From contig OZ252018.1 in assembly GCA_965247535.1 (NCBI GenBank), positions 1,783,813 to 1,847,812 on the forward strand: a stretch of DNA of 64,000 nt. Direction: 5' to 3'. Positions 2,472 through 46,068 of the stretch are shown piece after piece. The first letter of the stretch is position 1, and each line of letters opens with the position of its first letter. Made by a program: the position numbers and the translations under genes. Origin of the DNA: Dehalococcoidia bacterium (GTDB taxonomy: Bacteria; Chloroflexota; Dehalococcoidia; Lucifugimonadales; UBA2985). The notes under the pieces were generated by a model. That model was not told the origin of the DNA, made no database searches, and was given only the letters and a program-made list of their open reading frames with translations.

Positions 2472-2519
2472 TGCTCCACTCCTCGCTTTGACTTCTGTCG
2501 TCTCGCAGCACTGCCCCGC

Positions 2520-2915: not shown

Positions 2916-3109
2916 GGCTCCCCCCCGGAGCGCCTATCATTATTCCTGATTATAGTCGAATATTCAGACTGGGGAAACCCCCGGCGCGCAATGCAGGATT
3001 CGTCGGCCCTTCAATTGGTCACGACGCAATCGTATGTTCCTTCAGGGATTGCGTACCCCTTGACACAGGGTTTACAATCTGTCTCCACTCACACTGTGGA
3101 GCGGCGCAC

Positions 3110-3958: not shown

Positions 3959-4055
3959 CACGCCGGCCGCTTAGCGTCTCGGATCAGCCACCAGTCTCCT
4001 GCGCAAGTGTCTCTTTCGTACGCCCGCGTCCTGGTGTATCATCACACGCGCGAAC

Positions 4056-5435
4056 ATGGAGCTATCCAGGCGAATCTATCCACTTGACCCGCGCGAGCTG
4101 ACGGAAGAGCAGCTTGCAGTCGTGTTCGCCATGACGTCACGCAACCCCCAGCCCTTCGACGAGATCGCGCGGCTGGTGACCGAGGAGCGGGCCGCCGACT
4201 TCCACGAGCGTTGGGTGCTCAACTACGGGCACGCCTCCGTGGCAGAGCACGCCGTGCTGCACATGGCCGTGGAGAACATCTCTCGCCTGGCCTGCGACTC
4301 CTTGGAGGACAACCGGCTGGCTTCCTACACGGAAAAGTCCTCGCGCTACCAGGTGCTGGAACGGGGACACTACCACGTCCCCAGCGAGCTGGACGAAGAC
4401 GTTACCCTGCGCGAGGTCTACGTCGGCGCCTGCGACGCGCTGTTCGCGGCCTATGAGGCGTCGGTCGATGGGCTGCTGACCCACCTGCGTGACGTCACAC
4501 CGCGCAACGAGGGCGAGCGAGAGGCGGGCTACAACCTCCGGCTCAGGCGCGTTGCCACGGACGCGGCCCGCTTCCTGCTACCCGCAGCTACCCTGACAAA
4601 CGTGGGCGTCACGCTGAACGCCCGCTCCATGGAACACGCGGTCCGCAAGTTGCTATCGTCGCAGCTTGCTGAGGAGAGGGAGATTGGCGATGCGTTGAAG
4701 GAGCAGGGCAGGGAAATCACGCCCACGCTCATCAAGTACGCCGACCGCAACGAGTACATTGCGCTCACGCGCCAGGCTCAGGAGGCGCTGGCCCTGCCCG
4801 GCGACGAGGTCCGAGGCATGTACGACTGCCGCGCCGAACTGGTCCACTACGACGCGAAGGGGGAACAGAAGCTGGCCGCCGCGTTGCTGTACCGATTCTC
4901 GCCAATGCCGTATGCGGAGGTGTGGGAGCGCGTGCAACGCATGGACCGGTCGCAGTTGGAAGCCGTGGTCCACGAGGCGCTCGACCGGCTGGGCCCGCAC
5001 GACATACCGCTGAGGGAGCTGGAGGTGGTTGACTACACCTTCGACCTGGTGATGGACTACGGCGCCTTCCGCGAGTTCAAACGACACCGAATGCAGACGT
5101 ACCTGGCGCAGCCGGCCACCGTTGACCTCGGATACATCGTCCCGGACATCGTGCTGGAGGCCGGGCTTGAGAACCAGTTCAGGGATGCGATGGAGACGGC
5201 GGCGGAGGGCTACCATCGCGTCGCCGGGGCTTCGCCCGACGTGGCGGCGTACCTGGTGACTCACGCTCACCTGAGGCGCGTGCTCTCCAAGCTGAACCTG
5301 CGCGAGTGCTACCACCTGTTCAAGCTGCGCACAAGCCCGCAGGCGCACTTCACCCTGCGGAGGGTGATGCATCAGGCGCTTGACCTCGCAAGGGAACGCC
5401 ACCCGCTCCTGTTCAAATATCTGAGTCTGCGTTGA
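4056..5435 (+). CDS. two-domain ThyX (Thy1) family protein, FAD-dependent thymidylate synthase-like
   Basis: The N half has HASVAEH and LASYTEKSSRY (the SxxxxSxRY part of the ThyX motif), with DNR where RHR is expected. The C half has FKRHRMQT and NLRECYHLFKLRTSPQAH. At 459 aa it is about twice canonical ThyX length. Confidence 0.75.
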   Translation: MELSRRIYPLDPRELTEEQLAVVFAMTSRNPQPFDEIARLVTEERAADFHERWVLNYGHASVAEHAVLHMAVENISRLACDSLEDNRLASYTEKSSRYQVLERGHYHVPSELDEDVTLREVYVGACDALFAAYEASVDGLLTHLRDVTPRNEGEREAGYNLRLRRVATDAARFLLPAATLTNVGVTLNARSMEHAVRKLLSSQLAEEREIGDALKEQGREITPTLIKYADRNEYIALTRQAQEALALPGDEVRGMYDCRAELVHYDAKGEQKLAAALLYRFSPMPYAEVWERVQRMDRSQLEAVVHEALDRLGPHDIPLRELEVVDYTFDLVMDYGAFREFKRHRMQTYLAQPATVDLGYIVPDIVLEAGLENQFRDAMETAAEGYHRVAGASPDVAAYLVTHAHLRRVLSKLNLRECYHLFKLRTSPQAHFTLRRVMHQALDLARERHPLLFKYLSLR

Positions 5436-7932: not shown

Positions 7933-8661
7933 TTATCTCGAGGCCGCTCCGTGGGCTGGCAGGGCGGCCCTCATCTGCGAGTACGTCTCTCCCCTGTCTG
8001 CCAGCGCGAGGAAGAGATTGCCGAAGTTGCGTGGAAGCTCGTCCAGGTTCTCGTTGTGCCACTGTACGCCTATGACCCAGTCGTGGTGCGGGCTCTCCAG
8101 CGCCTCTATGAGGCCGTCCTCAAGTGAGTAGGCGGAGGCCATCAAGGAATGGGCCTTCAGAGGTTCGCTCACTCCCTGGTGGTGCCGGCTGTTGACTCTC
8201 ACGAATCCCCCGGCGCCCATTATGGCGGCCAGCTTGCTTCCGGGAGATATGTACACCCTGTGGTACGCCGAGCCGGGGATGCCATCCTCCCTTCGATGGC
8301 TGGGCAGGTGCTGAATGAGCTGCCCGCCGCACACCACGTTGAGGAGCTGCATCCCGCGGCAAATGCCCAGGACGGGCATGTCTCGCTCCATTGCTGCTTG
8401 CAGCAGAGCGATTTCCCACTCATCCTGCGCGTGGGCAGGATCGTCCAGGCCTGCGCCGGGGTCCGGATCGCGGTTGTATCGAGGAGGGTGGATGTCCGCG
8501 CCCCCCGTGATCAACAGGCCGTCGATGGAGTCCAGGGTGACCGGGACCTGCTCCGGTGAGTCCGGCAGAAGGAGGAGCGTTTCGACGCCGCCCCACTCGG
8601 CGGCCTCCACGTAGGTGCGCGCCCAGTCTGCGTCCGAGGCTGCCACGCCAATCAGCGGCAT
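7933..8661 (-). CDS. class I glutamine amidotransferase / gamma-glutamyl hydrolase family (peptidase C26, PuuD-like)
   Basis: [11 protein letters not shown] nucleophile-Cys motif and a downstream HHQ/VQWH His region. 242 aa. Its stop lies 22 nt upstream of the gyrA start on the same strand. Confidence 0.85.
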
Positions 8662-8787
8662 AGCGCGGCCTCCTCATCGGTGCGTAGCACCGGCACTGCG
8701 TGCGCGCAGAGAACGCATGCCACCCGCGCGATGCGAGTCACTGCCAGGGAGTCTGGATTGAGGAAGGACACCACTGGGTTCTCCTGA

Positions 8788-11073
8788 CTAGCCTGGCTCT
8801 GAAATCCCCAGTGACGAGAGTGTCTCAAGGCAGTCGGGAGGTATCTGCAACCCCTCCTGCACGCCCTGCTGGCACTTCTTTGTGAGGGCCTTTAGTATGT
8901 GCTCGTCCGGGCGCTGTCCTTCGCCGGAATGCGCCGCCAGGTCCGAGAGTGAGCCGCAGGCCTGCTGCACGTGCCAGTAGAACGACAGCAGCCATGCAAG
9001 GTCGCGCTCGTTGGAGGGTGGCGGAATCTCGTCCAGGTCGAAGATCGCGTTGTTGACCCTGGTATAGCGCAGGATGCCGGCCTTGTCCTTCTCGTTGTCG
9101 CCGTAGAAGCGCTTGCGCTTCAGTTCCCGCACGCGCTTGCGGTACTCGTCCTCGCCGTAGATCTCGCGGGGCAGCCACTCGCTGCGAAGGTCCTGCACCT
9201 CGCGGCCATCGCGGTCCACTATGGCAACCGCAACCTTCACGCCAAGAACGGGATCGTGCTCGAACTTCACGGCGTTCCTGAGCACCGCTTCCTGCAGCAT
9301 GAGCGTGATATCCCGAGTGATCTTGCGATACAGCGGCCCGCTGGCTTCCTCGTTGCGCTCAGCGCCAAGCCCGCCGGTGTTGAACATGTAGAACTCCTGG
9401 GCCAGGCCGCCTTCCGAGATGCTGTTCAGGATGGAGTACATGTGGTTGGCGTTCTCGTCCTCCAGGCCGATGATGAACGGATCCGAGAAGTACTCCACGT
9501 ACGGCCTCCCGATTGCCCCGGTGGCCGCGCCGGTCTGGACGGCCTCTCCGTACATGAGAGCGCGGACGTATGTCTCGGCGGTGAGTTTCACCAGCGGAGG
9601 AACCACGGTGTTCTGGCGCATGACGCCCTGCCATAGCAGCCTGTCCGTGACCTCCATTGGCACATGCACCGAGTCGCTCAACCGGCCGTCCGTGAAGGCC
9701 TGGGGCAGGTGTGCCACGCCCTTGCGTGCCAGCAGCCTCGACCGGGACAGGATCATGCGCATGTTGCGGACCGGGTTGTGGAGGAAGTCCGGGACGCCTT
9801 CGTCGTGCTTGAACGGCACGTTCTCCAGGGTCTCCTGCGGGTTGGGCTCCTCGTTTGAGCCTCTCAACACGTCGTAGGTGATGGGGTCTTCTTCCGGGGT
9901 CAGCCCGAACGGGACGGCGTAGAGGTTGTTCTCCGTGCCGTCAATGCCGTAAGAGACGGTCACCTGGCGGCCTCCCCGCTCCACCTCAATCGGGTCATCC
10001 AGGGGCTGCAGCAGGATAATGTCGTCGTTCATCGGGTATATGCCCTCTTCACTGTCCTGCGCCAGATTTAGCAGGGAGGCGAGCCGGCTTTCGTGAAGCT
10101 CGATCATGATGGTGAGAGTGCTCTTGCCGTGGAGAGAGGGGCCGGTGGTGACGAGGGCCGAGTTGGTGATTTCGCCCTGGAGGGTTCGGACGCGGGCCAT
10201 GCTGAGGGCTGCCTGAAGGGCGAGACCGTTGGCCTGCTTCACCTTGAACATAGCGATGGATAGCGGGCCCATCTTGTGCTCGCCCATGTAGTCGAAGCCC
10301 AGGTGGAGCGAGAGTCCCCTGGTGGGCGCCTTGAATATGAGCTGCGTTAGCTCGGCCTCCTCCACGCGGCGCTTGAGGTCGCGCGGCAAGCCAAGGTGTT
10401 CCAGCCACTTGGGAATGGAGACCTCCATTATGTGAGGCTCCTCCTGGAGACCGGCGTCAGTCAGGTCGAAGGTGAGCTGGCGCCACATGTAGGGCAGCTG
10501 GGGGTAGTCGGTCCCGAACAGGAGCTGCCTGGCGTGGAAGGAGCGTCCGGGCGCGTCGCCTATCTGCCGGTCGGTCTGGACTATGGTATCGCCGGAGTCG
10601 AAGCACTCCTTCATGCGCGCCGTGATGTACGGTAGGATCTCGGCGAAGAGGGCCTGGTTTTCCTGGCTGAAGGCCAGGGCGTCACGGTTCCTGTGAAAGC
10701 CGTCGATGAAGTACTGGGTGAGGTCTGGCCGACGTGCCACGCCCAGCTGGCTGAAGAAGCCTACGCCTCCGCTGTCGAGACGTACGACCGTGTCCGGCCA
10801 CGCTCGGATGCCCGCCTTGCCCTCGCCATTGAGCCAGGCGCACTCCTGCGCTACCTGATCGGCCTCCAGGATGAGCTGCTCCTTTTGCTGAGCAGGAAGA
10901 TCCTGAAAGATGCGCATGTGGCTTTTGAGCCACTCGCTGTCTGGATTGAAGAACTGGCTGTCTCTGGAGTGGCCCTTCCTGGCTGTAGCTACCAGGTCGT
11001 CAAGGGCCTTTGAGAATTCGGGGTGCACTGGGGGGCCTTGGAGAGCCGTCCCTATCCCCTGGGTAATTGCCAT
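8788..11073 (-). CDS. PEPCK-fold nucleotide-binding protein of unknown function (resembles DUF4914-type proteins, from memory only)
   Basis: 761 aa. A P-loop-like GPSLHGKSTLT is followed by NDDIILL, GIDGTENNLYAV and TLENVPF..PDFLHNPVRNMRM. This mirrors the kinase-1a / GDDEH / EGGCYAK / ENV..TENTR order of ATP-dependent PEP carboxykinase. Confidence 0.55.
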   Translation of the reverse strand: MAITQGIGTALQGPPVHPEFSKALDDLVATARKGHSRDSQFFNPDSEWLKSHMRIFQDLPAQQKEQLILEADQVAQECAWLNGEGKAGIRAWPDTVVRLDSGGVGFFSQLGVARRPDLTQYFIDGFHRNRDALAFSQENQALFAEILPYITARMKECFDSGDTIVQTDRQIGDAPGRSFHARQLLFGTDYPQLPYMWRQLTFDLTDAGLQEEPHIMEVSIPKWLEHLGLPRDLKRRVEEAELTQLIFKAPTRGLSLHLGFDYMGEHKMGPLSIAMFKVKQANGLALQAALSMARVRTLQGEITNSALVTTGPSLHGKSTLTIMIELHESRLASLLNLAQDSEEGIYPMNDDIILLQPLDDPIEVERGGRQVTVSYGIDGTENNLYAVPFGLTPEEDPITYDVLRGSNEEPNPQETLENVPFKHDEGVPDFLHNPVRNMRMILSRSRLLARKGVAHLPQAFTDGRLSDSVHVPMEVTDRLLWQGVMRQNTVVPPLVKLTAETYVRALMYGEAVQTGAATGAIGRPYVEYFSDPFIIGLEDENANHMYSILNSISEGGLAQEFYMFNTGGLGAERNEEASGPLYRKITRDITLMLQEAVLRNAVKFEHDPVLGVKVAVAIVDRDGREVQDLRSEWLPREIYGEDEYRKRVRELKRKRFYGDNEKDKAGILRYTRVNNAIFDLDEIPPPSNERDLAWLLSFYWHVQQACGSLSDLAAHSGEGQRPDEHILKALTKKCQQGVQEGLQIPPDCLETLSSLGISEPG

Positions 11074-11323
11074 GTTGCCAATCTCTCCTGATCCAAGTGT
11101 GGTCCCATCAAGGGAGGGTATTCCTGGTCCTCAAGGAGGGGCTATCCACGATTGAACCGTGGCAAGGGGCGCGACACAGCCATTCTACACGTAGCGGGGC
11201 CGTTTGGCAACCCAAATGTCACCGCAGCGGCTGTCGGAGAGGGCGTCCGGCTGCACACTCCGGGCGGTGCGCGGCGGGGTACGCGAGTCCTGGGGCCCAC
11301 GCCTGCGAAACGAGAACAAAATT

Positions 11324-11352
11324 TTGACAATCACGCCTAGATTTGGTATGAT
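11324..11352 (+). promoter_or_regulatory. sigma70-type promoter candidate upstream of gyrB
   Basis: TTGACA (11324-11329), a 17-nt spacer ending in TGG, then TATGAT (11347-11352). This would give a leader of about 240 nt before the gyrB ATG. Confidence 0.4.
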
Positions 11353-11417
11353 TGAACACGCAATATTCCAAGGCCTGCGTCGTTTCGGATACCGCATTTA
11401 ACCAGCTCTTGATTTGA

Positions 11418-13526
<2,109 letters not shown>

Positions 13527-18150: not shown

Positions 18151-18226
18151 TGTCGGGCGGCGCAGCGGCCGTACCTGGGCACGCCAGGGGCATTCTCTAT
18201 GGGTATTGGTTATGCCGCACGCCATC

Positions 18227-18317
18227 GCTCATACTGAGCTTGTCGAAGTAACTGAGTGGTGGCAGTTACGCCCACAGTCTTTCCGCTCAAATGGTTCGAC
18301 GTGCTCACCATGAGCGG
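18227..18317. repeat. REP-like palindromic units (two copies)
   Basis: cgctcatactgagcttgtcgaag (18227-18249) and ccgctcaaatggttcgacgtgctcaccatgagcgg (18283-18317). The latter has 7-bp terminal inverted repeats ccgctca/tgagcgg. Related units occur near 31.1, 33.2 and 35.4 kb. Confidence 0.6.
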
Positions 18318-29210: not shown

Positions 29211-30824
<1,614 letters not shown>

Positions 30825-30868
30825 GGAGCGCTTCGGAAGAAAGCTTCGGCTTGGCAGAGAAGCACAAA

Positions 30869-30907
30869 GGAGAGGGACGCTCGCTTGAGCGTCCCTCTCC
30901 TGTTTTT
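30869..30907 (+). terminator. rho-independent terminator after groEL
   Basis: ggagagggacgc (30869-30880) pairs with gcgtccctctcc (30889-30900) and is followed by tgttttt. Confidence 0.7.
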
Positions 30908-30933
30908 GGGGGGCCGCCGCCACTGTCTTTCCG

Positions 30934-31201
30934 AGCCCTTCGGCGACACTCAGGGTAAACTCCGCGCAGCGGAGTCGAGGAATCCATGACGCCCCGGGTA
31001 GGTACACGCTCTGCACAACGTCACCTCCTCTCACCCTCCTCTCCCGCGGAGCTTGTCCCGCACGTGATGCGGGAACATGAGTCCAGAGGCTCGGGCGGGT
31101 CGCAAACTGTACCGCTCATCCTGAGCTTGTCGAAGGGCATGAGCGGACTGCGTTCTCGGTCGTCGGCACGCTCATGGTGAGCCTGTCGAACCATTTGAGC
31201 G
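30934..31201. repeat. cluster of REP-like palindromic units
   Basis: Units at 31112-31145 (ccgctcatcctgagcttgtcgaagggcatgagcgg) and 31169-31201 (cgctcatggtgagcctgtcgaaccatttgagcg, the reverse orientation of the 18283 unit). Related hairpins lie at about 30934-30975 and about 31043-31075. Confidence 0.6.
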
Positions 31202-31232
31202 TGCCGGAGGCGTCAGGGGTGGTGGCCCGCCC

Positions 31233-32189
31233 TCACTCCGACGTAATGCGGGCCGAGGCCATCCTTCGGGCACGTATCGCCTGCCGCAGCAGGAACACCA
31301 CGCCGCCCAGTACCACGATGCTCAGGTAGCTTATCGAGCGGTCCAGCAGCGCCACGGACACCGCCTCGCTGCGGGCAAGGCTCAGCGTCAGCAGCCCAAC
31401 TATGCCGGGCTCCACGATGCCCAAACCGCCGGGGGTGATGGGCACCGTGGTCAATATGGCGTTGGCCAGCGTAACGAACACCACCAGCGAGAAACTGGCT
31501 GTGCTGGTCAGGTCCAGGGACTGGATCACGAAGTACAGCCTCCCCACCTCCGTGAGCCACGTCAGCAAGCTGATGAACAGCAGCAACGGCAGCTGGCGGA
31601 AGCTCCCCATTGCACCCTCGTGGAAGCGCACGTACGCCTCCCGGAAGCGGTTCGGGAGCAGGCGGGCCAGTCGCATACCGAATCGCTTCATCACCAGTAT
31701 TCCGGCCACCCCCACCAGCACCAGCAGCGAGGCGATTCCGAGAAACAGCGCTGTGCCGCTCAGGTCTCCCACCCACGAGAGGGCCAGTGCGGCCACAACC
31801 AGCAGCACGAAGATCGTCACCACGTCCAGTACTCGCTCCGCTAGGATCGTTCCCATTGTTCGCGGGAAGCTGTGTCCGGTGTCCTCGGTGAATACGTATG
31901 CCCGGTAGGCGTCTCCCAGGCGGAACCACGTTATGGCGTTGGCGAACCAGCCCAGGAAGATGTACTGCGAACAGGCCAGGACGGACGGAAGCTCTGCGGG
32001 TGATTCCTCGTCCGTTTGCGAGCTGCGAAGCATGATGCGCCATCGCAGTCCCCTGAGTATGAAGCCTACGTAGTACGAGGCGAAGGCGGCCCCGTACAGC
32101 AGGAGGTCGCTGGCCCTCAGCTTGTCCCACGTGTCCGTCCAGCTCACGTCGAAGCGAATGGCGAGGAATGCCAGGAAGAACGCCGCCAC
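31233..32189 (-). CDS. UPF0104 / lysylphosphatidylglycerol-synthase-TM-like (flippase-like) membrane protein
   Basis: 318 aa polytopic membrane protein. The early LRGLRWRIML motif is typical of this family. Confidence 0.65.
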   Translation of the reverse strand: MAAFFLAFLAIRFDVSWTDTWDKLRASDLLLYGAAFASYYVGFILRGLRWRIMLRSSQTDEESPAELPSVLACSQYIFLGWFANAITWFRLGDAYRAYVFTEDTGHSFPRTMGTILAERVLDVVTIFVLLVVAALALSWVGDLSGTALFLGIASLLVLVGVAGILVMKRFGMRLARLLPNRFREAYVRFHEGAMGSFRQLPLLLFISLLTWLTEVGRLYFVIQSLDLTSTASFSLVVFVTLANAILTTVPITPGGLGIVEPGIVGLLTLSLARSEAVSVALLDRSISYLSIVVLGGVVFLLRQAIRARRMASARITSE

Positions 32190-32311: not shown

Positions 32312-33064
32312 TTAGAGCGGGCGCTTGGCCGGCATGCCCGGTCGCCGCGGGTAGGCCGGCGGCGTCGGAGAGACCTTCGTCAGCACCACCAGGCACCGCG
32401 GCTCGCCCAGCTCGTCAAGGTCCACCGGCACTACGGCCTCGAGACGGCCGCCAAGGACCTCGATCGCCCGCTCCGCGCGGCTGAGCTCGTCACCCACGTC
32501 CAGCTTCTTCTGCGCGATCACCCTGCCGCCGACCCGGCACAGCGGCAGCGCCAGCTCGGCCAGCGTGTCCATCTCAGCCACGGCGCGGGCCGTCACCACG
32601 TCGAACGCCTCTCGCAGGTGTGGCCGACGTGCCAGCGTCTCGGCTCGCTCCGCCAGAACGTCCACGTCCTCCAGGCCCAGCGAGCATGTCGCGTGGCGAA
32701 GGAAGGCGGCCTTCTTCCCGATCGACTCCACGAGCGAAACGCGCAGGCCTGGACTCGCGATCTTCAGGGGCAGTCCAGGGAATCCGGCGCCGCTCCCCGC
32801 GTCCGCCAGCGCGCCGCCGTCAAGGGCGTCTTCGGGGATGGCCTGCAGCACCGATAGGGAGTCCAGGAAGTGCTTCGACTGAACGTCCTGGCAACCGGAG
32901 ATTCTCGTGAGGTTGATGCGCGAGTTCCACTCCACCAGATTTCGGTAGTAGCGACGGAACTGCGCCAGCTGCGCCTCATCGAGGCGAAGGCCAAGGCGCG
33001 CCGCGCCTGCGATGAGCGCCTCCACGTGGGCTGGGCCTCCTTCCGTGCTCCGGTGTGCCTGCAA
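32312..33064 (-). CDS. rsmG: 16S rRNA (guanine527-N7)-methyltransferase
   Basis: NLTRI..SKHFLDSL and the SAM motif DAGSGAGFPGLPLKI. Confidence 0.88.
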   Translation of the reverse strand: MQAHRSTEGGPAHVEALIAGAARLGLRLDEAQLAQFRRYYRNLVEWNSRINLTRISGCQDVQSKHFLDSLSVLQAIPEDALDGGALADAGSGAGFPGLPLKIASPGLRVSLVESIGKKAAFLRHATCSLGLEDVDVLAERAETLARRPHLREAFDVVTARAVAEMDTLAELALPLCRVGGRVIAQKKLDVGDELSRAERAIEVLGGRLEAVVPVDLDELGEPRCLVVLTKVSPTPPAYPRRPGMPAKRPL

Positions 33065-33156
33065 GCTGCGGCATTATAGCATTGCATGGCGCGGAAGTCA
33101 TTTGCGGTGAGTTACCGCCGCGCAGCCCGCTCCTTGTGGGGGTAAACGCCACCTGG

Positions 33157-33193
33157 CCCGCTCACGCCCTTCGACAGGCTCAGGGTGAGCGGG
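33157..33193. repeat. REP-like palindromic unit
   Basis: cccgctcacgcccttcgacaggctcagggtgagcggg with terminal inverted repeats cccgctca/tgagcggg. Confidence 0.6.
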
Positions 33194-33228
33194 CCGGAAC
33201 GGCCGCAGTACCGCCTCGCGAGGACCAC

Positions 33229-34653
33229 TTACATCCTGCGCCGCCTCGCTCGGAACACGAGCGCCAGCGCGCCGGCCACACCGAAGAATGCGAGTAACCC
33301 ACTGGCCACCAAGACGCCGGACGAACGCCACAGATCTGATTCCCGGTAGGTATGAAGCTGCACCGTAACGCTCGCCTGTAAGTCGTTGGCCTGCTCGCCT
33401 TGGCGCAGACGGCCGTCGCTCTCTACCTCGCGGTGCAGGACAACGCCGTCTCTCGCCATGGACGTGAGTGTCCCATCGAGGGCGGATGCGGGCACCAGGA
33501 AGCTGAGGAACGCTTCCTGGCTGTCTTGTCGAATCGTCATGATGACGCGACCCATAGTCCCACCGGACCCGTGCACCAACTCCTGGACGCGGTTCACCGA
33601 ACGCTCGACATCGTCCACTTCCATCTGCAGAGACGCTGAGGGAGAAACGGGCACGGAGCCGGGAGGCAGAACAAAGCTCACGGTAATGGTCGCTAGCGCC
33701 ACGCTGCGCTGTATGAATTCGAGTTGCCCCTGTAATCGCTCGATGTCCGCGCGCACACGACTGAGTTCACGCTCGACTGTGAGCACATCGCTGACGGACA
33801 CTGCCCTGTCGAGCAATTTCAGCAGGCTCTCCTCAGTGCTTCGCTCGCTCCTGAGGCGGGCCTCAAGGTCGATGGCCTCTCCCGTAACGTCCCGCTGGCC
33901 GAGGCTCTGCCCCAAGGGCTTCCCCAGCCGTTCGATGCCGTCGAGCGCATCGAGGAATCGGTCGCTGGGGACACGCACTACGGCAGAGCCGTACTCGGGG
34001 TTGGGGCCTCCCGAGGTGGAGATGTGCTCGACGTAGCCCCCAACAGACTGAACCAGCCCGCGAAGTCGGACGGAGGCCGCGTTAACGTCGATCACCTCAA
34101 GGTCAATCGACGCCTGAGAGATGATCTGTCGCTCGCTAGCCAATTCTTGAGGATTCCCACCGCTGGGTTGGCTGGTCGTGAGAGCGGACTTGGGCCTTTC
34201 CAATGTTGTCGAAGCCTTAGGTGCCGGCGTTGGCTCTGCATGGTTCATTGGATCCATGGCGAGCGATCCGCTGACCGAGACACCACTCGCAAACTGGTTC
34301 CCATCAGGGTCCTCCAGGTAAGAATCGGTGTCGTCGAGGGTTATCGCTTCGAGTGACTCGCCATTGGCCCTCATCCATCGTCCATCCGCCAGAGAGGCCC
34401 CATCCTCACCGCCCGAGAACTGGCCGGTAGCGATTAGTGCTGTGCCTGCTCCCCCCAAGGTCAGCACAACAGCAGCCGCAGCGCCTGCCGCCACTAATCT
34501 CCATCGCCTCAGCCAACCGTCGGAGGACGTGGACGGCGGCTCCAATCTCGGCTCAACGCGTGCCCACAAGTTCTGTGACGCCGGCGCTTCGCTCGCCTCT
34601 GCGAGGAGTGCCTCCCGGATACGGAGTTTGGTGTTGTCATGCTGTTCGCTCAT
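33229..34653 (-). CDS. DUF4349-domain membrane protein, probable anti-sigma factor partner
   Basis: It starts 18 nt after the ECF sigma gene. A TM segment follows the cytoplasmic N-terminus. The C-terminal part (ASIDLEV..VVRVPSDRF..DLEARLRSERSTEESLLKLL..ELSRVRADIERLQG) matches the DUF4349 pattern and is followed by a terminal TM. Confidence 0.7.
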   Translation of the reverse strand: MSEQHDNTKLRIREALLAEASEAPASQNLWARVEPRLEPPSTSSDGWLRRWRLVAAGAAAAVVLTLGGAGTALIATGQFSGGEDGASLADGRWMRANGESLEAITLDDTDSYLEDPDGNQFASGVSVSGSLAMDPMNHAEPTPAPKASTTLERPKSALTTSQPSGGNPQELASERQIISQASIDLEVIDVNAASVRLRGLVQSVGGYVEHISTSGGPNPEYGSAVVRVPSDRFLDALDGIERLGKPLGQSLGQRDVTGEAIDLEARLRSERSTEESLLKLLDRAVSVSDVLTVERELSRVRADIERLQGQLEFIQRSVALATITVSFVLPPGSVPVSPSASLQMEVDDVERSVNRVQELVHGSGGTMGRVIMTIRQDSQEAFLSFLVPASALDGTLTSMARDGVVLHREVESDGRLRQGEQANDLQASVTVQLHTYRESDLWRSSGVLVASGLLAFFGVAGALALVFRARRRRM

Positions 34654-35403: not shown

Positions 35404-35420
35404 CCGCTCAAATGGTTCGA
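35404..35420. repeat. truncated REP-like unit (left half only) at the recombinase 3' end
   Basis: ccgctcaaatggttcga is identical (17/17) to 18283-18299 and to the reverse complement of the 31.2-kb unit. Similarity ends abruptly at 35421. Confidence 0.6.
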
Positions 35421-36988
35421 GAACCCTCTTTCTCTATTGGCACAAACTCTTGGGTTGGGATACCCAATGTGATAGTAACGTTGTTGTCACGGTCGATTGC
35501 GATCTGGTCCACGATCAGCCGCAGGACTTCTCGACGCTCCTCGGGGGGCAGGCCATCCAACCCATCGCCAACCTTGACGGCCCAATCGGCGACGTTCGAC
35601 ATAAGTACCTGCTTCTCGATAGCCATTGTCTCCTGGGCTCGGTAGTCATCAAGCTTCGCCCGTGCGTCCTTCAAGCGTTCGTGTATTGGCTTGCGCTGTT
35701 GGTCTAGCTGGCCCTCGGTGATCTTGCCGGATACGAACAACGAAATGGCCCTGTCCTCTTCTGTCTGGACTTTCCGTAGATCACGCTCTGCACCTGCAAT
35801 CCGCTTCGGGAGCCCGCCGTCTCCCCGCTCCCCAAGGGATTCCAGGCCCTCCACGATGAGGTCGGGATTCTGGACCACCGTCTTGACCTCTCTCCAGACC
35901 AGCTCTTCCAACCTGTCGGCTCGGATGTACGGCCGTTGCCTGCACTTGAGGTCCTCCCTCTGCATCCCATAGAAGTGATAGTGCCGTTGGGGAGTCTTGA
36001 AGTTGTAACTGTACGTCTTGTCCTTGCGCTTCACCGTCGCCCGAGTCTTCGACCGGCAGGCGAAGAGCAGCCCGCACTCGGCGCACCTGAGGAGGCGCTG
36101 CAACAGGTAGAAGACCTTGGTGTTCCTCTTGGAGAGCGAGGTCCGGTCCTTCTTGACAGCCTGCGCCCGGTCCCACGTCTGCTCGTCCACAAGGGGCGGG
36201 AAGGGCACCCCTATCCACGTATCCTCCGGCTGTCTGATGACCCTGTCCCTGCCCTCCGTGGCGATCCAGCGGGCCTTGCCGTACCACCAGCTGCCCTTGT
36301 AGACCTCCTTGCCGAGGAGGGTGTGGACGTACGAGTTCTGCCACCGCGAGCCCGGTCTCCAAGTTGGCGCGTTGTCGCGGGCCAGCTGACGGGCAATCTC
36401 CAGACCCACCATCCCTTCGTGGACGTACAGGTGGAATATGCGCTGCACGATCTCGGCCTCAGGCTCGTACACCACCGGCCTGCCATCCTCCCCGATCCGG
36501 TATCCGTAGGGGACCGAACCATTGGGCATCCGGCCTTGCTTGGCCTTCCCGCGCCTGCCCATGGACGTTCTCTCTCGGATGTTGTCCAGCTCAATCTTCC
36601 CGATTGCCGCCATGATTCCGAACATCTTCATGTCGATGGGGTCCATGACCGACTCCAAGCGTATCTGGTGCGCCTCGACCACCTCCATGAGGGCTGCAGC
36701 GGGGTACATCCCACGGCTGAGCCTGTCCATCTTCCAGCAGACGATGACGTCGAACCGGGCATCACTCGCATCTGCCAGCATGCGCTGGAACTCGGGACGC
36801 TTCTTGGACCAGCTTCTGCCCACCTCCTGGTAGCGCGCTACTATGATCAGCCCCATGCGCTCGCAGTAGGCCTCCATATCGGCGATCTGCTCGGATAGAG
36901 AGGTCTTGTCTTCCGTGTCCTGGCTCTTGTCCGAGACGCGGGCGTAGATGGCCGCCCTGTTGCCTTTAATCTTCCCGTCGATGGTCAT
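35408..36988 (-). CDS. large serine recombinase (resolvase/invertase N-domain + recombinase + zinc-ribbon/coiled-coil)
   Basis: AAIYARVSDKSQ catalytic Ser region, then DRLSRG. The recombinase domain carries the CxxC-type ribbon CAECG, followed by a long C-terminal helical region. The start is placed at ATG 36988 (AGGAGG lies 12 nt upstream; GTG at 36994 is an alternative) rather than the ORF-track start at 37030, which overlaps a terminator. Confidence 0.9.
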   Translation of the reverse strand: MTIDGKIKGNRAAIYARVSDKSQDTEDKTSLSEQIADMEAYCERMGLIIVARYQEVGRSWSKKRPEFQRMLADASDARFDVIVCWKMDRLSRGMYPAAALMEVVEAHQIRLESVMDPIDMKMFGIMAAIGKIELDNIRERTSMGRRGKAKQGRMPNGSVPYGYRIGEDGRPVVYEPEAEIVQRIFHLYVHEGMVGLEIARQLARDNAPTWRPGSRWQNSYVHTLLGKEVYKGSWWYGKARWIATEGRDRVIRQPEDTWIGVPFPPLVDEQTWDRAQAVKKDRTSLSKRNTKVFYLLQRLLRCAECGLLFACRSKTRATVKRKDKTYSYNFKTPQRHYHFYGMQREDLKCRQRPYIRADRLEELVWREVKTVVQNPDLIVEGLESLGERGDGGLPKRIAGAERDLRKVQTEEDRAISLFVSGKITEGQLDQQRKPIHERLKDARAKLDDYRAQETMAIEKQVLMSNVADWAVKVGDGLDGLPPEERREVLRLIVDQIAIDRDNNVTITLGIPTQEFVPIEKEGSRTI

Positions 36989-37025
36989 CACCACTGCTTG
37001 CCTCCTTTCACCCGTTGCCTCTGAA

Positions 37026-37059
37026 ACCAAAAAGACCCGCCTCCTGTCGGGAGCGGGTC
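37026..37059 (-). terminator. rho-independent terminator just upstream of the recombinase gene
   Basis: The minus strand reads GACCCGCTCC-CGACA-GGAGGCGGGTC followed by TTTTTGGTTTC. Confidence 0.55.
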
Positions 37060-37156
37060 CGCGAGTAGTACAATGCTATTCGCATCACCTGCTCTATCAG
37101 GTGGCGCCACGGCCCGGGGTGTTTGCAGCATCGCCGGGCCAACTTCTACTTGGGAT

Positions 37157-37224
37157 GCTACCATGATCAGTCTTCGATGAGAAGGCATCAGTCCTGTTCC
37201 TCGCTCCCGTCACTATGAGGCGGG
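37157..37224. repeat. degenerate REP-like sequences flanking the recombinase 5' side
   Basis: gctaccatgatcag (37157-37170) and cgtcactatgaggcggg (37208-37224) resemble the missing right half (gtgctcaccatgagcgg) of the unit truncated at 35420. The intervening gaaggcatcag resembles gaagggcatgag. Confidence 0.35.
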
Positions 37225-37415
37225 TCCGCTGCGGCTGGCGGTCCTTCGCGGTGCGCCAGCTTCAAGAGGATGGCAGTGAGGCGGCGCAGACGGTCCTCGG
37301 CGTCGGGTCCGGGGTCGCAGACAATGCCGGCGATCCTCACCTGAGCGCCATACCCGTCCCACCTGTCCGGTCCGTTCTGTCTCTTCGATCTTCCCATTTC
37401 GCCTGCTCGGAGCAC
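37188..37415 (-). CDS. hypothetical small protein (doubtful)
   Basis: 75-aa ORF with no motif. Its 3' end overlaps the degenerate REP-like sequence. Confidence 0.25.
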   Translation of the reverse strand: MLRAGEMGRSKRQNGPDRWDGYGAQVRIAGIVCDPGPDAEDRLRRLTAILLKLAHREGPPAAADPPHSDGSEEQD

Positions 37416-37468
37416 CCTCTAGTCGGCCCGCCGAACTCTCGTCACTGATGCGGCTCTCGAGTTAAAGT

Positions 37469-38586
37469 GTACTCGTTCAGGACATATGAGACAGAGGGGT
37501 CTCCGGGTGGCACTGAAGAATATACTCCATGGGAGAGTGATAGCCAAGGGACTGATGTGGGCGGTGTGTGTTGTAGTAGAGTTCGTGGTCTCTGAGAGCT
37601 GGGGTGATGTCCTGGACGGTCCAGTCGCCGTCGTAGAAGGCGTAGAACTCCTCCTTGTGGGTGCGGTGAGCTCGTTCGGCGAAGGCGTTGAGCTTGGGAG
37701 AATGAGGAGGAGTGGTGAAGAGCCGGATGCCTCGGTCTCGGCAAGCGGTCTCGAAGTCGGCCTGGAACTCTGATCCATTGTCCACCTGGATGGCGCGTAC
37801 AGGGAAGGGGCATCGTGTCTGGAGGGCGTCCAGGATGCGGGTGGCGGTGTTGGCGGTAGCACGTGAGGCTATGAGTAGGGTGTCCCATCGAGAGACGACA
37901 TCCCGTGCGCTGAAGTGTTTGAGGACTACGCCTGGGAGAGGGCGGAGGTCGGTGGTGTCCAGGTGGAGGAGGTCACCGGGGGCCTTGGGGCGGTAGTCCC
38001 TTGGGGTGCGGCGTAGGGACGGCGGACGCGGCGTTTAGCGCTGGCTACACCGGGGCGTGGTGGTTCCTTCAGGACCCCGCGACGCTTGAGGTCGGCGAGT
38101 ATGCGGCCGATGGTGGAGGTGGAGACCATCCATCCACGCTGTCGCAACAGGGGAGCCAGCTTGTCCTTGCCGAACCATGGCGGCTGCCGGCGCAGGTCCT
38201 CAATCGCTGTCACCAGCTGCGGGTCCCACTGGGGCGTCCGCCTGCGGTGGGGTGCACGCGACCTCGGCTCCAGACCCGGGATGCCAACCTCCCTGCGACG
38301 CCGGGCCCAGCGGTACAGAGTGGAGCGGGGTATGCCTATCACCTCAGCAGCGACTTGACCCCGCAGACCCAGCGCCTGGAATTCCCGCCACAGGCGCAGT
38401 GCCCTCTCCCTTGCTCTCGCTTCGTCACTGACCGGCTCCGCAGTGGTTCTCGCCAGCCGGTCCGCTTGGTACAATACCCTGGGTAGCCCAACTACCCGCA
38501 TGGGGGGCCCCCTTTAGTGTTTACTCACCTCAAGGATGGCCCCTCCTTTTCGTCTTGACTAGTCTCACATGTTTCTGAACGAGAAT
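37469..38586 (-). mobile_element. IS481-like insertion sequence (about 1.1 kb)
   Basis: Imperfect terminal inverted repeats: CTCGTTCAGGACATATGAGAC (37472-37492) versus the reverse complement of 38562-38583 (CTCGTTCAGAAACATGTGAGAC). They enclose a single HTH + DDE (rve) transposase gene whose stop lies inside the left IR. Confidence 0.7.
37477..38501 (-). pseudogene. IS481-family transposase, one frameshift near 38,000
   Basis: The N-terminal HTH part (38501 down to about 38000) is in one frame. The integrase core (..DLLHLDTTDLRPLPGVVLKHFSARDVVSRW..IQVDNGSEFQ..NTHRPHQSLG) is in another. The shift lies at a CCCC run (gcaccccaaggg). Confidence 0.75.
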
Positions 38587-38801
38587 AAAAGTCTATGGGG
38601 AGGCTCGGATTCGCAGTAGGGCAATAACTCCCGGGCTGGCACGTGCCCCTTGGTAGAAGTTGGTGCACGAGACCGACATCCATGCCATCTGCTCTTCGAC
38701 TCCGAAGGCCGACGACCAATGGGAACAGGCATCCAAGACCTGGAGACGTAGGGAGCAGGCCTTCCCCTAGGCTGTAGGAGAAAGAGAGGGCGGGTGCAGA
38801 C

Positions 38802-40871: not shown

Positions 40872-40936
40872 GACCACCTGCCATACCTTCAATGGGTCTA
40901 GGCCGATTCCCCAGAGAAGGGGGGGGTCAGAGTTTT

Positions 40937-40968
40937 GAATCTCTCTAATATAATATACCCGCGTGAAG
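40937..40968. promoter_or_regulatory. conserved AT-rich 32-bp element, copy 1
   Basis: GAATCTCTCTAATATAATATACcCGCGTGAAG is 31/32 identical to 43347-43378, while the flanking DNA has diverged strongly. It contains a TATAAT hexamer (40949-40954). Confidence 0.6.
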
Positions 40969-41113: not shown

Positions 41114-41371
41114 TTAAATGCGCCGCCCGCGGAGGGCTAATCGCGTCCTCTCGCGTCGGGCCGCCACCTGTTCTGGTGTTAGCAGCGGCGGTATGTCCGC
41201 GGCCTCTAGCGGGACCTCCTTGTGAGTCTTGCCGTTGACCACTTTGCTCACCGTGACTGTCGAAAAACCGAAGTGCGCCGCGATGTCCACGATTGTGTAG
41301 CCGAGCCCAAAGTACTTCCGCATCAAGGCAACTTCCTGGGGCTTCACATGTCTACGCTGCTTCTTTGTCAT
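41114..41371 (-). CDS. helix-turn-helix DNA-binding protein
   Basis: 85 aa. HTH-like GYTIVDIAAHFGFSTVTVSKVVNGK. Last gene of a tightly packed four-ORF string. Confidence 0.6.
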   Translation of the reverse strand: MTKKQRRHVKPQEVALMRKYFGLGYTIVDIAAHFGFSTVTVSKVVNGKTHKEVPLEAADIPPLLTPEQVAARRERTRLALRGRRI

Positions 41372-41545: not shown

Positions 41546-42247
41546 TCAGCGATAGTGGGTCAGGTGAATGGGACGGTGTTTCGGCATCGGCTTCACGGGT
41601 AGCCGCCCCAGGCGCCCGGCATCAGTATCACTGTGCCACTTCTTCAGGGGGCCTGGAATAGACTCGTCACAGTGCTCCATCTCCTCGCTTAGGAACCGAA
41701 GGGCGTTGAAATAGACCCTTATTCCAGAGTGCTTGACGAACTCTCGCAGCAGGAGATTGGAACGGTTTAGTAACAAGTGGTATGCCAAATGCATGGAAAT
41801 GAATTCGGACTCCCAGTCCAGGTTCAACCAGTCCGCGCCTGGGATCCGGGCCTCTAGTGACCTGCCCGGCAGGCGAGCCACAACTGCCCTTGCAAGCTGG
41901 AGACCCTCTTCTTCGGTAGGAGGGTCTGTGGTGCCCGGAAAGCCGCGTGCCGTATTGCGGAGGGCGGCCCGCCTGAAGTGGTTCCCGAGGAGCTCAAGCT
42001 CGGGAAAGTCCTGCCAAAGCTCCCTAGTCTGAACTCTCATGGCGTCCAGAATGGCTTCCTCCTCAACCTGCTTGTTCATCATTTCGACAGCAAGGCCAAT
42101 GCGCCCGTTGATTTGCTCTGCACTAGGTCCTGCAGTCCCGAAGGCACTCGGATCACAGGCAAACTCCTCAATGGTCTTCAGGTAGCCATCAATGACCAAA
42201 CGGACGTTGTCATCCAGCTCCCCAACGCTTGTCGGCCATGATCTCAT
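41546..42247 (-). CDS. module B: unknown-function protein (233 aa)
   Basis: Intact ORF and paralog of the module A protein. I recognise no enzymatic or DNA-binding motif. Confidence 0.6.
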   Translation of the reverse strand: MRSWPTSVGELDDNVRLVIDGYLKTIEEFACDPSAFGTAGPSAEQINGRIGLAVEMMNKQVEEEAILDAMRVQTRELWQDFPELELLGNHFRRAALRNTARGFPGTTDPPTEEEGLQLARAVVARLPGRSLEARIPGADWLNLDWESEFISMHLAYHLLLNRSNLLLREFVKHSGIRVYFNALRFLSEEMEHCDESIPGPLKKWHSDTDAGRLGRLPVKPMPKHRPIHLTHYR

Positions 42248-43296: not shown

Positions 43297-43346
43297 GCGC
43301 GCCTTCCTTATGTCAAGGAATGGGAGGGTGCGGCGAGTCGGAGTTG

Positions 43347-43378
43347 GAATCTCTCTAATATAATATACGCGCGTGAAG
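43347..43378. promoter_or_regulatory. conserved AT-rich 32-bp element, copy 2
   Basis: GAATCTCTCTAATATAATATACgCGCGTGAAG, in the same orientation as copy 1, 2,410 bp away. Confidence 0.6.
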
Positions 43379-44262: not shown

Positions 44263-44431
44263 ACGGTAGATACCACTATCTTTGAGATGTGGCTCGGTAG
44301 CCTTTCTACGCATGAGGGTCTCTCGATTCCTGTAGTGTGACACGTCGGAGCAGAGGGGTGCAGGACGGCCACGTTGGGCCTATTTTGACGGTAGACAGAA
44401 CCATCTTCGAGATGTGGCTGGGAAGCCTGTG
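44263..44431. repeat. two imperfect 44-bp direct repeats 125 bp apart
   Basis: acggtagataccactatctttgagatgtggctcggtagcctttc (44263-44306) versus acggtagacagaaccatcttcgagatgtggctgggaagcctgtg (44388-44431), about 34/44 identical. Confidence 0.5.
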
Positions 44432-44571
44432 AGACTCACCAAGGGTTGCTGCAGCATGATTGTGACAGGATGGCAGCGCGGGCGGCCAATGTCGCCCGTT
44501 CCTATGCCGTTGCAACCAGCCTGAGTCAGGGGTTGACCTTCTCTTCAGAGGTCGTCTGGAGGAGCATGACC

Positions 44572-45306
44572 TTAGAATTTCTCGGCCTCGGACCCGAACC
44601 ACTTCTCGATGAGGGCGTTCAGAGAGCCGTCCTCCTTCATGCCGGCGATGGCCTTGTCCAGCTTGTCCTTCAAATCGCCATCGTCCTCCCTGACGCCCAC
44701 GCCGATTCCGGAATCCAGTTCGACACGCGGCCCCACCAGGGCCAGCTTTCCTTCATGCTCCGCCATACGCTCCCGGGCGAACTCCAGGTCTACCAACGCC
44801 GCATCCGCCTCTCCGCTCAAGACGGCCGAGACCACCGCAGGGGCCAGCTCGTACTCCAGGAGGGTCGCGCCTGACTGCGACAGGTGGTCCGCCTGGACGG
44901 TAGCCACCTGGGCAGCCACCTTGCCGTCTACCACATGGCCGCCAGCCCCGGCCAGTGCCAGGTAGACTGACTGGCCGGGAGGGAAGTACGGATGCGTGAA
45001 ATCGATGACCTCGTCCCGCTCGTCGGTGATGCTCATCCCGGCGAGGATGGTGTCATAGTCCCCAGCCACCAGGTTGGGTATGATGCTGTCCCAGTCGTTG
45101 GTCACCCAGGTGCATTCGAGGTCGGCCCGGCGGCACAGCTCGTCACCCAACTCCCGCTCGAATCCGTCGACTTCTCCCTCGTCGTCGATGAAGTTGTAGG
45201 GAGGATACGCCCCCTCGGTACCCATCCTGACGGCTTCGGGGCCGCCGCACGACAAGCAGGCGAAGATTAGTATGGCAATTGCGAAGATAGTCCAGCGAGT
45301 ATCCAT
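44572..45306 (-). CDS. amino-acid-type periplasmic substrate-binding lipoprotein (SBP family 3)
   Basis: Lipobox-like FACLSCGG. Also YPPYNF, DGFERELGDELC, WDSIIPNLVAGDYD and ISGMSITDER-type blocks typical of HisJ/ArgT-like binding proteins. Confidence 0.85.
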   Translation of the reverse strand: MDTRWTIFAIAILIFACLSCGGPEAVRMGTEGAYPPYNFIDDEGEVDGFERELGDELCRRADLECTWVTNDWDSIIPNLVAGDYDTILAGMSITDERDEVIDFTHPYFPPGQSVYLALAGAGGHVVDGKVAAQVATVQADHLSQSGATLLEYELAPAVVSAVLSGEADAALVDLEFARERMAEHEGKLALVGPRVELDSGIGVGVREDDGDLKDKLDKAIAGMKEDGSLNALIEKWFGSEAEKF

Positions 45307-45414
45307 AGAAATACCTCCATGTAGCCTGTCGGCTCACGGCTCCAAGCGCCCGATCCGACGTCCAGACCTGGCAGAGCGCGGGGAGACGATTCTTTTTGAA
45401 AGCGGTCCGTGCCG

Positions 45415-46068
45415 CTAGTCACCCAGCAGTCCGTTCCGTGCGGACCAGAGCACCAACTCCTGCAATGACCCGACACCCAACTTCTGCCGGATGCCATAGA
45501 TGGCGTTCCGAGCGGACACCGGCTTGATCCCCCTCGCCTCCGCTATCCGGGCGTAGGACATACCCTTGGAGAACGAGACGAGAATCTCCCGCTCCCTCGG
45601 AGTCAGCCCGGCGGCGGCATCTCCTGCCCTTCCGCTGCCGCGTATCTCCTCGAACGCCCTTCTAACAACTTCAACAGGCACCCTAAGCTCGCCCGAGACC
45701 GCGTCCCGCACGGTTGACAGCAGCCGCTCCCTGTCCGTCTCCTTCTGGAGGTATCCGGTGGCGCCGGCGGCCACGGCCTCCACTATGGCGTCAACCTCCG
45801 TCGAGGCCGTCAGCATGACCACGCGGGTCTCGGGGGCGGACACCATGATCTCCCGGCACGCTTCCACGCCATCCTTCCTCGGCATAATCACATCCATCAC
45901 CACCACGTCCGGCGACACCTCGGCGGCCACCCTTACCGCCTCCTCGCCGTCCGCCGCCTGTCCCACCACCTCGAACTCGCCGGACTGTTCCAGGACCTGC
46001 TTCAGGCCGACCCTTACGATTGAATGGTCGTCAACGATCATCACCCTTATGCGCTCGTCCGCCGACAT
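45415..46068 (-). CDS. NarL/FixJ-family response regulator (REC + LuxR HTH)
   Basis: ATG at 46068 lies 7 nt after AGGAGG. IRVMIVDDHSIVRVGL, the phospho-acceptor region VVVMDVIMP, and the C-terminal LTPREREILVSFSKGMSYARIAE. Confidence 0.9.
   Translation of the reverse strand: MSADERIRVMIVDDHSIVRVGLKQVLEQSGEFEVVGQAADGEEAVRVAAEVSPDVVVMDVIMPRKDGVEACREIMVSAPETRVVMLTASTEVDAIVEAVAAGATGYLQKETDRERLLSTVRDAVSGELRVPVEVVRRAFEEIRGSGRAGDAAAGLTPREREILVSFSKGMSYARIAEARGIKPVSARNAIYGIRQKLGVGSLQELVLWSARNGLLGD

Follow-up and report, generated by a model that had tools for sequence, protein, structure and literature searches.

Large serine integrases of phages and of integrative and conjugative elements (ICEs), such as Bxb1, phiC31, A118, TP901-1 and SprA of SPbeta, act on attB sites of ~40 bp that form an imperfect dyad with a central crossover. 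Repetitive extragenic palindromes (REPs) are associated with the REP-associated tyrosine transposases (RAYTs), HUH/Y1 enzymes that transpose single strands, have intact REPs on either side and are believed to disperse these repeats. REPs also serve as targets of insertion sequences (ISs), namely IS1397 and ISKpn1 of the IS3 family and ISPpu9, ISPpu10 and IS621 of the IS110 family (PMC1525189, PMC11208160). In Dehalococcoides, DsiB, a CcrB-like large serine recombinase of ~540 aa, is encoded at the edge of the ssrA islands (McMurdie et al. 2011, PMC3146451). The 3′ end of its gene overlaps the att site, so that translation stops in DNA beyond the island and each copy may have a different C-terminal tail (PMC3146451). 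The literature that we searched contained no serine recombinase with REP targets. Here we describe a large serine recombinase (LSR) gene in a 64,000-nt stretch of bacterial DNA (hereafter, the window), which is very probably the integrase gene of an element that has inserted into a REP-like unit.

The G+C content of the window is 63% and, judged by its nearest relatives, its source genome appears to belong to the Dehalococcoidia (Chloroflexota). The LSR comprises 526 aa when read from an ATG; gene callers also use a GTG at 36994 or a TTG at 37030. It contains the Pfam domains Resolvase (PF00239, 1.8e-28), Recombinase (PF07508, 2.7e-14) and Zn_ribbon_recom (PF13408, 1.1e-7), and its length, together with the C-terminal Recombinase domain and zinc ribbon, is within the 450-700 aa architecture expected of LSRs. 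The protein matches the integrase family PHROG 95 at 3e-100, its best NCBIfam model is CcrB at 1e-30, far under the cut-off of that model, and its nearest relative with a solved structure is SPbeta SprA/YokA (8e-19 against the PDB). The catalytic motif YxRVSxxxQ with its nucleophilic serine is present, R19, V20, S21 and Q25 being invariant in 33 homologs. On the basis of its sequence, the enzyme is a complete large serine recombinase.

The 3′ end of this gene lies within one half of a repeat unit. The complete unit is an intergenic imperfect palindrome of 35 nt, CCGCTCA-N3-TGAGC-N2-GTCGAA-N5-TGAGCGG, and five intact copies are found in the window. It resembles REPs in being short, imperfectly palindromic, intergenic, present in many copies and arranged in arrays: two of the five units in the window are paired, arrays occur at the related loci L031 and L088, and further units were seen at other Dehalococcoidia loci. 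The 17-mer CCGCTCAAATGGTTCGA at 35404-35420 is an exact copy of the left half of the unit at 18283-18317 (18283-18299, 0 mismatches), whereas 0.02 matches would be expected by chance. A previous reading of the window from its letters alone (the sequence-only reading) had also called it identical to the reverse complement of a unit at 31.2 kb, where we found one mismatch (31186-31202). The same reading correctly placed the end of the similarity: resemblance to the repeat stops at 35420/35421, with none from 35421 onward. It was also right that R-T-I-stop is encoded by the half unit, because the gene ends in TCT CGA ACC ATT TGA; on the element side, this 3′ end reads ...GAGGGTTC-TC-.

Is the half unit host DNA, and is 35420/35421 a junction? 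The sequence-only reading had offered as one possibility that an element integrated here, and an intact REP without an LSR does occupy the orthologous point in two related genomes. L031 is a circular genome of 2.15 Mb whose flank shows 90-94% nucleotide identity to the window, and L088 is a second related genome in which the gene neighbourhood of the window is kept; both lack the LSR. The order in both is thiolase, REP array, ECF sigma (extracytoplasmic function sigma factor) gene, DUF4349, GidB, LPG synthase and GroEL. The unsplit REP at this point reads ...TGAGCTTG before the breakpoint and TCGAACCATGCGTGCGGGGCA(A/G)GTGAATCGG after it in the two genomes, that of L088 being CCGCTCATGGTGAGCTTG followed by TCGAACCATGCGTGCGGGGCAGGTGAATCGG, and the homology of both genomes with the window stops at 35423. 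Because an unsplit REP with the same downstream flank and no element exists in L031 and L088, the half unit at 35404-35420 is, as judged by this comparison, host DNA, and 35420/35421 is a genuine integration junction.

A second line of evidence comes from a sister strain. The L019 contig corresponds to the window locus at 97-99% identity and bears two LSR copies that are 96.35% identical to each other. The 3′ end of the second copy abuts the REP unit that is intact in the window at 31112-31146. The empty site in the window reads CCGCTCATGCCCTTCGA followed by CAAGCTCAGGATGAGCGG and the occupied site CCGCTCATGCCCTTCGA followed by GAACCCTCTTTCTCAATTG, the break falling after the same TTCGA as at 35420/35421; the REP half kept by the second copy retains TGCCC, the local variant of the empty site. 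Because this copy breaks at the same point in that REP, the window holds an empty target site for the sister insertion.

The junction also recurs throughout the clade. A scan of one genome per species recovered 16 LSR loci, all in metagenome-assembled genomes of Dehalococcoidia, and more contigs were added by exact-protein look-ups. In the clade with 74-97% identity we counted 16 independent junctions (the window, L001-L011, L017, L018, L084 and the second L019 copy), and in all 16 the sequence ...GAG(A/C)AAGA(G/C)nnnTC is joined to TCGAA, N5 and (T/C/A)GAGCGG; written as a clade sequence, ...GAGAAAGAGGnnTC meets TCGAA, five variable bases and (T/C/A)GAGCGG. The N5 is CCATT, CCATA, CCACA, GGCAG, GGAAA or GGGCA, and the DNA beyond the REP half is unrelated between the loci. 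At L001, the retained half shares the unusual variant CCACACGAGCGG, comprising N5 and stem, with an intact REP 0.9 kb away. In the proteins, conservation extends as far as ...E-x-S-R in 27 of the 28 closest homologs, after which the sequences end in RTI, RRQ, RRK, RTT, RRE, RRT, RRN or RTQ, which are translations of TCGAA-N5-TGA; in L001 and L008 the TGA of the repeat is mutated and the reading frame runs on to 554 and 538 aa. Because the element always adjoins the same half of the palindrome, its insertion is orientation-specific. The LSR is found at differing chromosomal sites, with two or three copies in single genomes that are only 81-95% identical to each other. A scan of Joint Genome Institute (JGI) metagenomes for the LSR 3′ end returned three chance matches.

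Where in the unit does the exchange occur? To the left of TCGAA, the element has ..TC and the intact repeat ..nG, whereas to its right the five variable bases follow the local repeat. Because the left side is element-like and the right side local-repeat-like, the exchange is placed within TCGAA, 1-5 nt off the dyad centre of the 35-nt unit. A crossover near the dyad centre is what an attB that binds a dimer of the recombinase should show, and the uniform orientation argues against the palindromic CG as the cut dinucleotide. On the element side, the entropy at third codon positions is ~0.33 in the last 8 codons of the gene, in contrast to 0.8-0.95 over the preceding 100 codons (14 loci). A role of these codons as an att site at the DNA level would fit this low synonymous variation, and the last ~24 nt of the gene may serve both as coding sequence and as the element-side P arm of the att site.

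We consider it very likely that the LSR gene is the integrase of a Dehalococcoidia integrative element inserted into a REP unit. The att site of the element would overlap the last codons of the integrase gene, and the chromosomal att site would be the 35-nt REP-like palindrome, divided into CCGCTCA-N3-TGAGC-N2-G and TCGAA-N5-TGAGCGG. Recombination within the central TCGAA would make the element start at what is now 35421, and the leftover REP half would contribute two or three codons of host origin and, from its stem, the TGA that closes the reading frame. The LSR itself presumably catalysed the event by a standard attP x attB reaction with a 2-bp staggered cut. The far junction would then be expected to read CCGCTCA-N3-TGAGC-N2-G, then TC(GAA), then element DNA.

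Several observations weigh against this proposal. Of the two hybrid junctions that an attP x attB reaction would leave, one is mapped to within TTCGA and agrees with the empty sites, but the loci searched yielded neither the other junction nor attP. Exact, regular-expression and fuzzy patterns for the complementary REP half returned intact units and background-level matches in the window and the related loci; no solitary half of this kind is present in the window from 35421 to 64000 or in the 10 kb that precede each of 14 related copies. The mirror image of the gene-side arm, GAACCCTCTTTCTC, was sought as the far arm and gave no match. The window contains none of the DNA (thiolase, ChsH2, LVIVD) that flanks the empty site in L031 and L088, which means that the inserted DNA exceeds 28.6 kb or that the far side was rearranged later. 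Recognisable element DNA ends at ~44.45 kb beside another repeat family, with no REP half. No excised circular form was found, and in viral contigs there was no close LSR relative, the matches having <30% identity. Finally, the second L019 copy is known from one 1x long-read contig. A GroEL-based look-up gave 8 contigs, none of them with this second insertion. Some candidates for the far end were set aside: what looked like a solitary left half in L017 (6630) proved to be no junction but the beginning of a duplicated gene; the solitary halves seen in L007 and L015 are unconnected with any element; the left ends of pairwise homology in L003, L004, L008 and L011 carry no REP half, one of them being an IS insertion; and homologs of the substrate-binding protein (SBP) gene at 44.4 kb lie in unrelated contexts and leave the boundary undefined.

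These gaps give some room to the idea that the LSR recognises REPs but acts mainly as an invertase or rearrangement enzyme, or that a later rearrangement took place, so that there was no simple insertion with two junctions. Apart from the missing junction, the far flank of the window differs from the ancestral flank, two inward-facing LSR copies in L019 bracket a 4.3-kb chromosomal segment, and part of the island is present twice, its end lying at a different repeat family. We nevertheless regard this explanation as unlikely, because whole LSR modules are present or absent at REP sites and because the domain set is typical of integrases, with mosaic upstream cargo as in integrative elements; moreover, 10 kb of flank was covered, yet at least one element type is longer than 10.4 kb. 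The second possibility raised by the sequence-only reading, a ~1.8-kb recombinase-only unit flanked by both REP halves, which would be comparable to a RAYT/REPtron or a small IS, draws on the fact that in most pairwise comparisons of 18 loci the homology runs from ~155 bp upstream of the LSR start to the REP half, a core of ~1.75 kb. This boundary at -155, however, is that of a promoter and a conserved block, upstream of which further element genes are conserved over 4 to >10 kb; copies within a genome, at 81-95% identity, do not look like an IS-type burst, and no REP left half adjoins the core at any locus. The degenerate right half proposed at 37157-37170 and 37208-37224 did not survive scoring, with a best local score of 9 against six REP right-half variants, whereas 40% of 311 background windows of 200 nt reach 9 or more. 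It also lies in DNA (37149-37458) that is 96% identical beside the LSR of L001 at a different chromosomal site, and this DNA thus belongs to the element and is no REP remnant. Such a unit is therefore highly improbable.

It is scarcely credible, in our view, that the 17-mer belongs to the element, for instance as a REP-like terminator that the gene carries at its 3′ end. A REP half does follow the gene in every clade member, in unrelated genomes, and the sequence-only reading had held that a 17-mer conserved as a recombinase 3′ end elsewhere would speak against integration. The recurrence is real, but what recurs is a REP half whose variable 5-mer, like everything beyond it, is host DNA: the same half with the same flank stands inside an intact REP without an element in L031 and L088, the half retained by the second L019 copy keeps the empty-site variant, and N5 changes from copy to copy as the REP variants of the locality do. 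The variation of N5 and of the DNA beyond it thus confirms target specificity and is not counter-evidence to integration. With two empty sites, the L019 polymorphism and 16 junctions sharing one breakpoint, the att junction suggested at 35420/35421 is well borne out, and on these comparisons it is a true junction, formed where an island carrying the LSR integrated into a REP-like repeat; one end of that island is located.

The DNA upstream of the LSR also has the character of an element (Table 1). The LSR genes of the window and L001 are ~96% identical, and the two loci share a 69-aa open reading frame (ORF), a 318-aa gene, a short AT-rich block and a small helix-turn-helix (HTH) gene. The 318-aa gene family, with two copies in the window, has no match in Pfam, NCBIfam or PHROG. 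The IS481-like insertion in the window is polymorphic and recent, being absent at this point in L019, L020, L021 and L001. Part of the module is duplicated: a 233-aa paralog and a second copy of the block occur in 41.5-44.4 kb, the two block copies being those at 40926-40968 and 43337-43378. The last DNA common to other LSR loci is at 44.16-44.45 kb, in partial copies of the second repeat family. Elsewhere, the region upstream of the LSR is a mosaic that includes genes of unknown function as well as DUF1016/YhcG nuclease genes, HTH_3 regulators and TPR proteins (the latter three, for example, beside the LSR of L011), and it is conserved within sub-groups for 4 to >10 kb. A PHROG search found no phage genes, and the window contains no LSR remnant in 37-47.5 kb. 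We suggest from this gene content that these are integrative islands sharing an integrase module and not an insertion sequence.

Table 1. Features of the window discussed in the text
Feature	Position	Strand	Basis or remark
Intact REP unit	18225-18260		in window
Intact REP unit; left half is the 17-mer	18283..18317	+	repeat search
Intact REP unit; empty site for the second LSR copy of sister strain L019	31112..31146	+	
Intact REP unit	31168-31204		in window
Intact REP unit	33158-33192		in window
REP half kept after the split, apparently attB-derived; gives the R-T-I codons and TGA stop of the LSR gene	35404..35420	+	host origin from L031, L088
TTCGA, 5 bp that must contain the crossover; common to intact REP and element junction	35416..35420	+	L019 vs 31112-31146, junction alignment
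LSR gene, 526 aa from ATG	35408..36988	-	Pfam, PHROG, NCBIfam, PDB
Final 8 conserved LSR codons (V-P-I-E-K-E-G-S), putative P arm of att site	35420..35443	-	codon entropy
Near-invariant block directly upstream of LSR, ~115 nt from promoter to terminator	37012..37146	-	alignment of LSR copies
Small ORF, 69-75 aa, accompanying the LSR	37188..37415	-	94% aa identity to L001 9619-9828; no family match
IS481-like insertion in the element (HTH_32 and rve_3 fragments; inverted ends CTCGTTCAG / CTGAACGAG)	37469..38587	-	Pfam
Element gene split over two frames; 318 aa when intact in L001	38802..40071	-	85-93% aa identity to L001 8381-9337
Element-encoded small HTH protein	41114..41371	-	56% aa identity to L001 7739-7945; weak HTH matches
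233-aa paralog (47% aa identity) of the 318-aa element gene	41546..42247	-	part of partly duplicated module
Two direct partial copies of second palindromic repeat family (GACGGTAGACAGAACCATCTTCGAGATGTGGCTGGGA)	44263-44303, 44388-44447	+	SBP gene adjoins

Sister clades appear to use other targets. In the clade with 64-66% protein identity (L012-L016, LSR 3′ ends at ~11520-11570), the break occurs after GGAATCAC and the sequence continues into a different repeat family; in L012 the break forms the dyad GGAATC-AC-GATTCC. This suggests target switching between sister clades that have the same overlap of gene and att site. We also observed that many homologs share tails such as ESRFRCPTTAPYPGETSRRWR, which means a different repeated target, and that other tails hold ..SCWW.., possibly the complement of a tRNA or tmRNA 3′ end with the sequence CCACCA.

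Directly upstream of the LSR lies a near-invariant block, preceded in most relatives by a TTGAC-N17-TAnAAT promoter (TTGACT-N17-TAGAAT in L003). It includes a hairpin GGCCCGG-N16-CCGGGCC, a palindrome GTGGCGCCAC, a hairpin CACCTG-N6-CAGGTG, an invariant single-stranded stretch ATTGTACTACTCGC, a GC-rich hairpin with a T-run and then a ribosome-binding site. The block is near-invariant in 26 of 27 LSR copies, the exception being L017, whose LSR is frameshifted; it is present at the same position in L001-L016, L018 and L084, and it occurs only ahead of LSR genes. Even in the clade with 64-66% protein identity, in which the gene is ~71% identical, the block is 88-92% identical. Its stems are invariant and its loops variable, so that there is no covariation to prove an RNA structure, and Rfam gave no match. 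The hairpin that resembles a terminator, CCCGCTCC-CGACAGG-AGGCGGG, looks like a REP unit in shortened form, since CGACAGG stands at the centre of REP units. Could the block guide the recombinase to its site? The loops vary independently of N5: those of the window and L001 are identical while the N5 are CCATT and CCACA, and L003 and L010 have a common loop with CCATA and GGAAA. Because the variable loops do not follow the REP variant that was hit, a guide function is disfavoured. The most economical interpretation is that the block would be a transcribed leader or attenuator, or a cluster of protein-binding sites, governing integrase expression. We hold with little confidence a broader view in which REPs would be a genome-wide multi-copy landing site for this LSR clade, sister clades at ~60-66% identity would have switched targets while keeping the att core in their last codons, and the ~115-nt unit, more than a mere leader, would act as an RNA partner dedicated to the recombinase, with a part in regulation or in the choice of site; taken as a whole, this combination is quite improbable.

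The spacer between groEL and the LPG synthase gene, which contains REPs, measures 409 bp in the window (30824-31233) and in most sister contigs and only 116 bp in L023 (11608-11724), which suggests that the length of the REP array differs among strains. ORFs called mechanically over REP units (window 33055-33331) yield motifs such as LRQAQGER and PEPVEGRER, peptides that are liable to be taken for small proteins; a 163-aa ‘gene’ called in L031 covers nothing but a REP array.

Two further loci carry additional recombinase genes. In L014, a second, unrelated LSR (11697-13178, minus strand, 26% identity) lies tail-to-tail with the first, with ~150 bp between the 3′ ends. In L016, a degraded second LSR with its upstream block (2086-4669, minus strand) stands head-to-head with the intact copy (8600-11548, plus strand), ~4 kb apart.

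The second repeat family has the core GGTTCTGTCTACCGTCAA..TTGACGGTAGACAG with flanking GAGATGTGGCTGGGA and is also found in L012 (11631-11722), L005 (2651-2711) and L083 (~10890-10934); the copy in L012 is a full one, ~100 nt past the LSR of the distant clade. The adjoining SBP_bac_3 gene (window 44375-45478), with ~170 bp on each side, is 97% identical in L083 (9828-10934), where it lies between IS3-type transposases, and a 90% homolog (L089/L090) occurs in yet another context. This gene appears to move as a small cassette.

Very large genes for repeat-domain surface proteins (fn3, Calx-beta, cadherin-like) lie 3-15 kb upstream of many LSR copies (L001 1-7487, L002 1-7236, L003 1386-4655, L011 26-2377, L012 2-4174, L018 1745-4918 and the window at 52.4-64 kb), and none >1000 aa was seen downstream. 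They are not homologous between loci; those upstream of L001, L002 and L011 were considered as shared cargo and rejected, because they are not homologous to the window genes. A ~110-nt motif is shared by L002 (7376-7483) and L011 (2436-2543), directly after the giant surface genes, in loci that are otherwise unrelated.

Serine integrases are prized for inserting large DNA at one defined site, and a natural clade whose site is a short palindrome in many copies would reveal the way in which these enzymes recognise a symmetric repeat. REP targeting would explain the multiple island copies per Dehalococcoidia genome, and REP-bearing genomes would offer many ready-made landing pads. Serine recombinases would thereby join the REP-exploiting enzymes, which so far comprise DDE and DEDD transposases and HUH enzymes, and the DsiB-type arrangement, with the att core in the 3′ end of the integrase gene, would be extended beyond ssrA. 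For annotation, the model explains the variable C-termini of these integrases and the half REPs at their gene ends.

Compared by description, DsiB is the system most like the one reported here: both come from the same bacterial class and are CcrB-like LSRs, with a gene at the island edge whose 3′ end overlaps the att site, a stop codon outside the island and a variable C-terminal tail. What is new with respect to that precedent is the multi-copy REP as target. DsiB targets the single-copy ssrA, whereas the target in our case is a 35-nt REP with several copies per genome; in the window, the REP unit that is occupied precedes an ECF sigma gene, and no tmRNA was found in the window. The six-gene module of DsiB, with the small serine recombinase DsiA and RecF-like, ParB and Mom proteins, also differs, as no DsiA-like, ParB or Mom gene stands beside the LSR. 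With the phage and ICE serine integrases, the LSR shares the three-domain architecture and the catalytic motif, but those enzymes use a unique attB, usually in genes, and an attP that normally lies outside the integrase ORF. The REP-targeting ISs likewise insert in an orientation-specific manner near the centre of a multi-copy extragenic palindrome; they are, however, mobilised by DDE or DEDD transposases, those of IS110 using a bridge or seek RNA, whereas the enzyme described here is an LSR with kilobases of mosaic cargo, and it does not fit an RNA-guided system of the IS110 type, in which a DEDD recombinase is combined with an upstream guide RNA. As in the RAYT/REPtron, a recombination gene is physically tied to REPs; here, in contrast to the RAYTs, it is a serine recombinase that adjoins one broken REP, which would be its target rather than its product.

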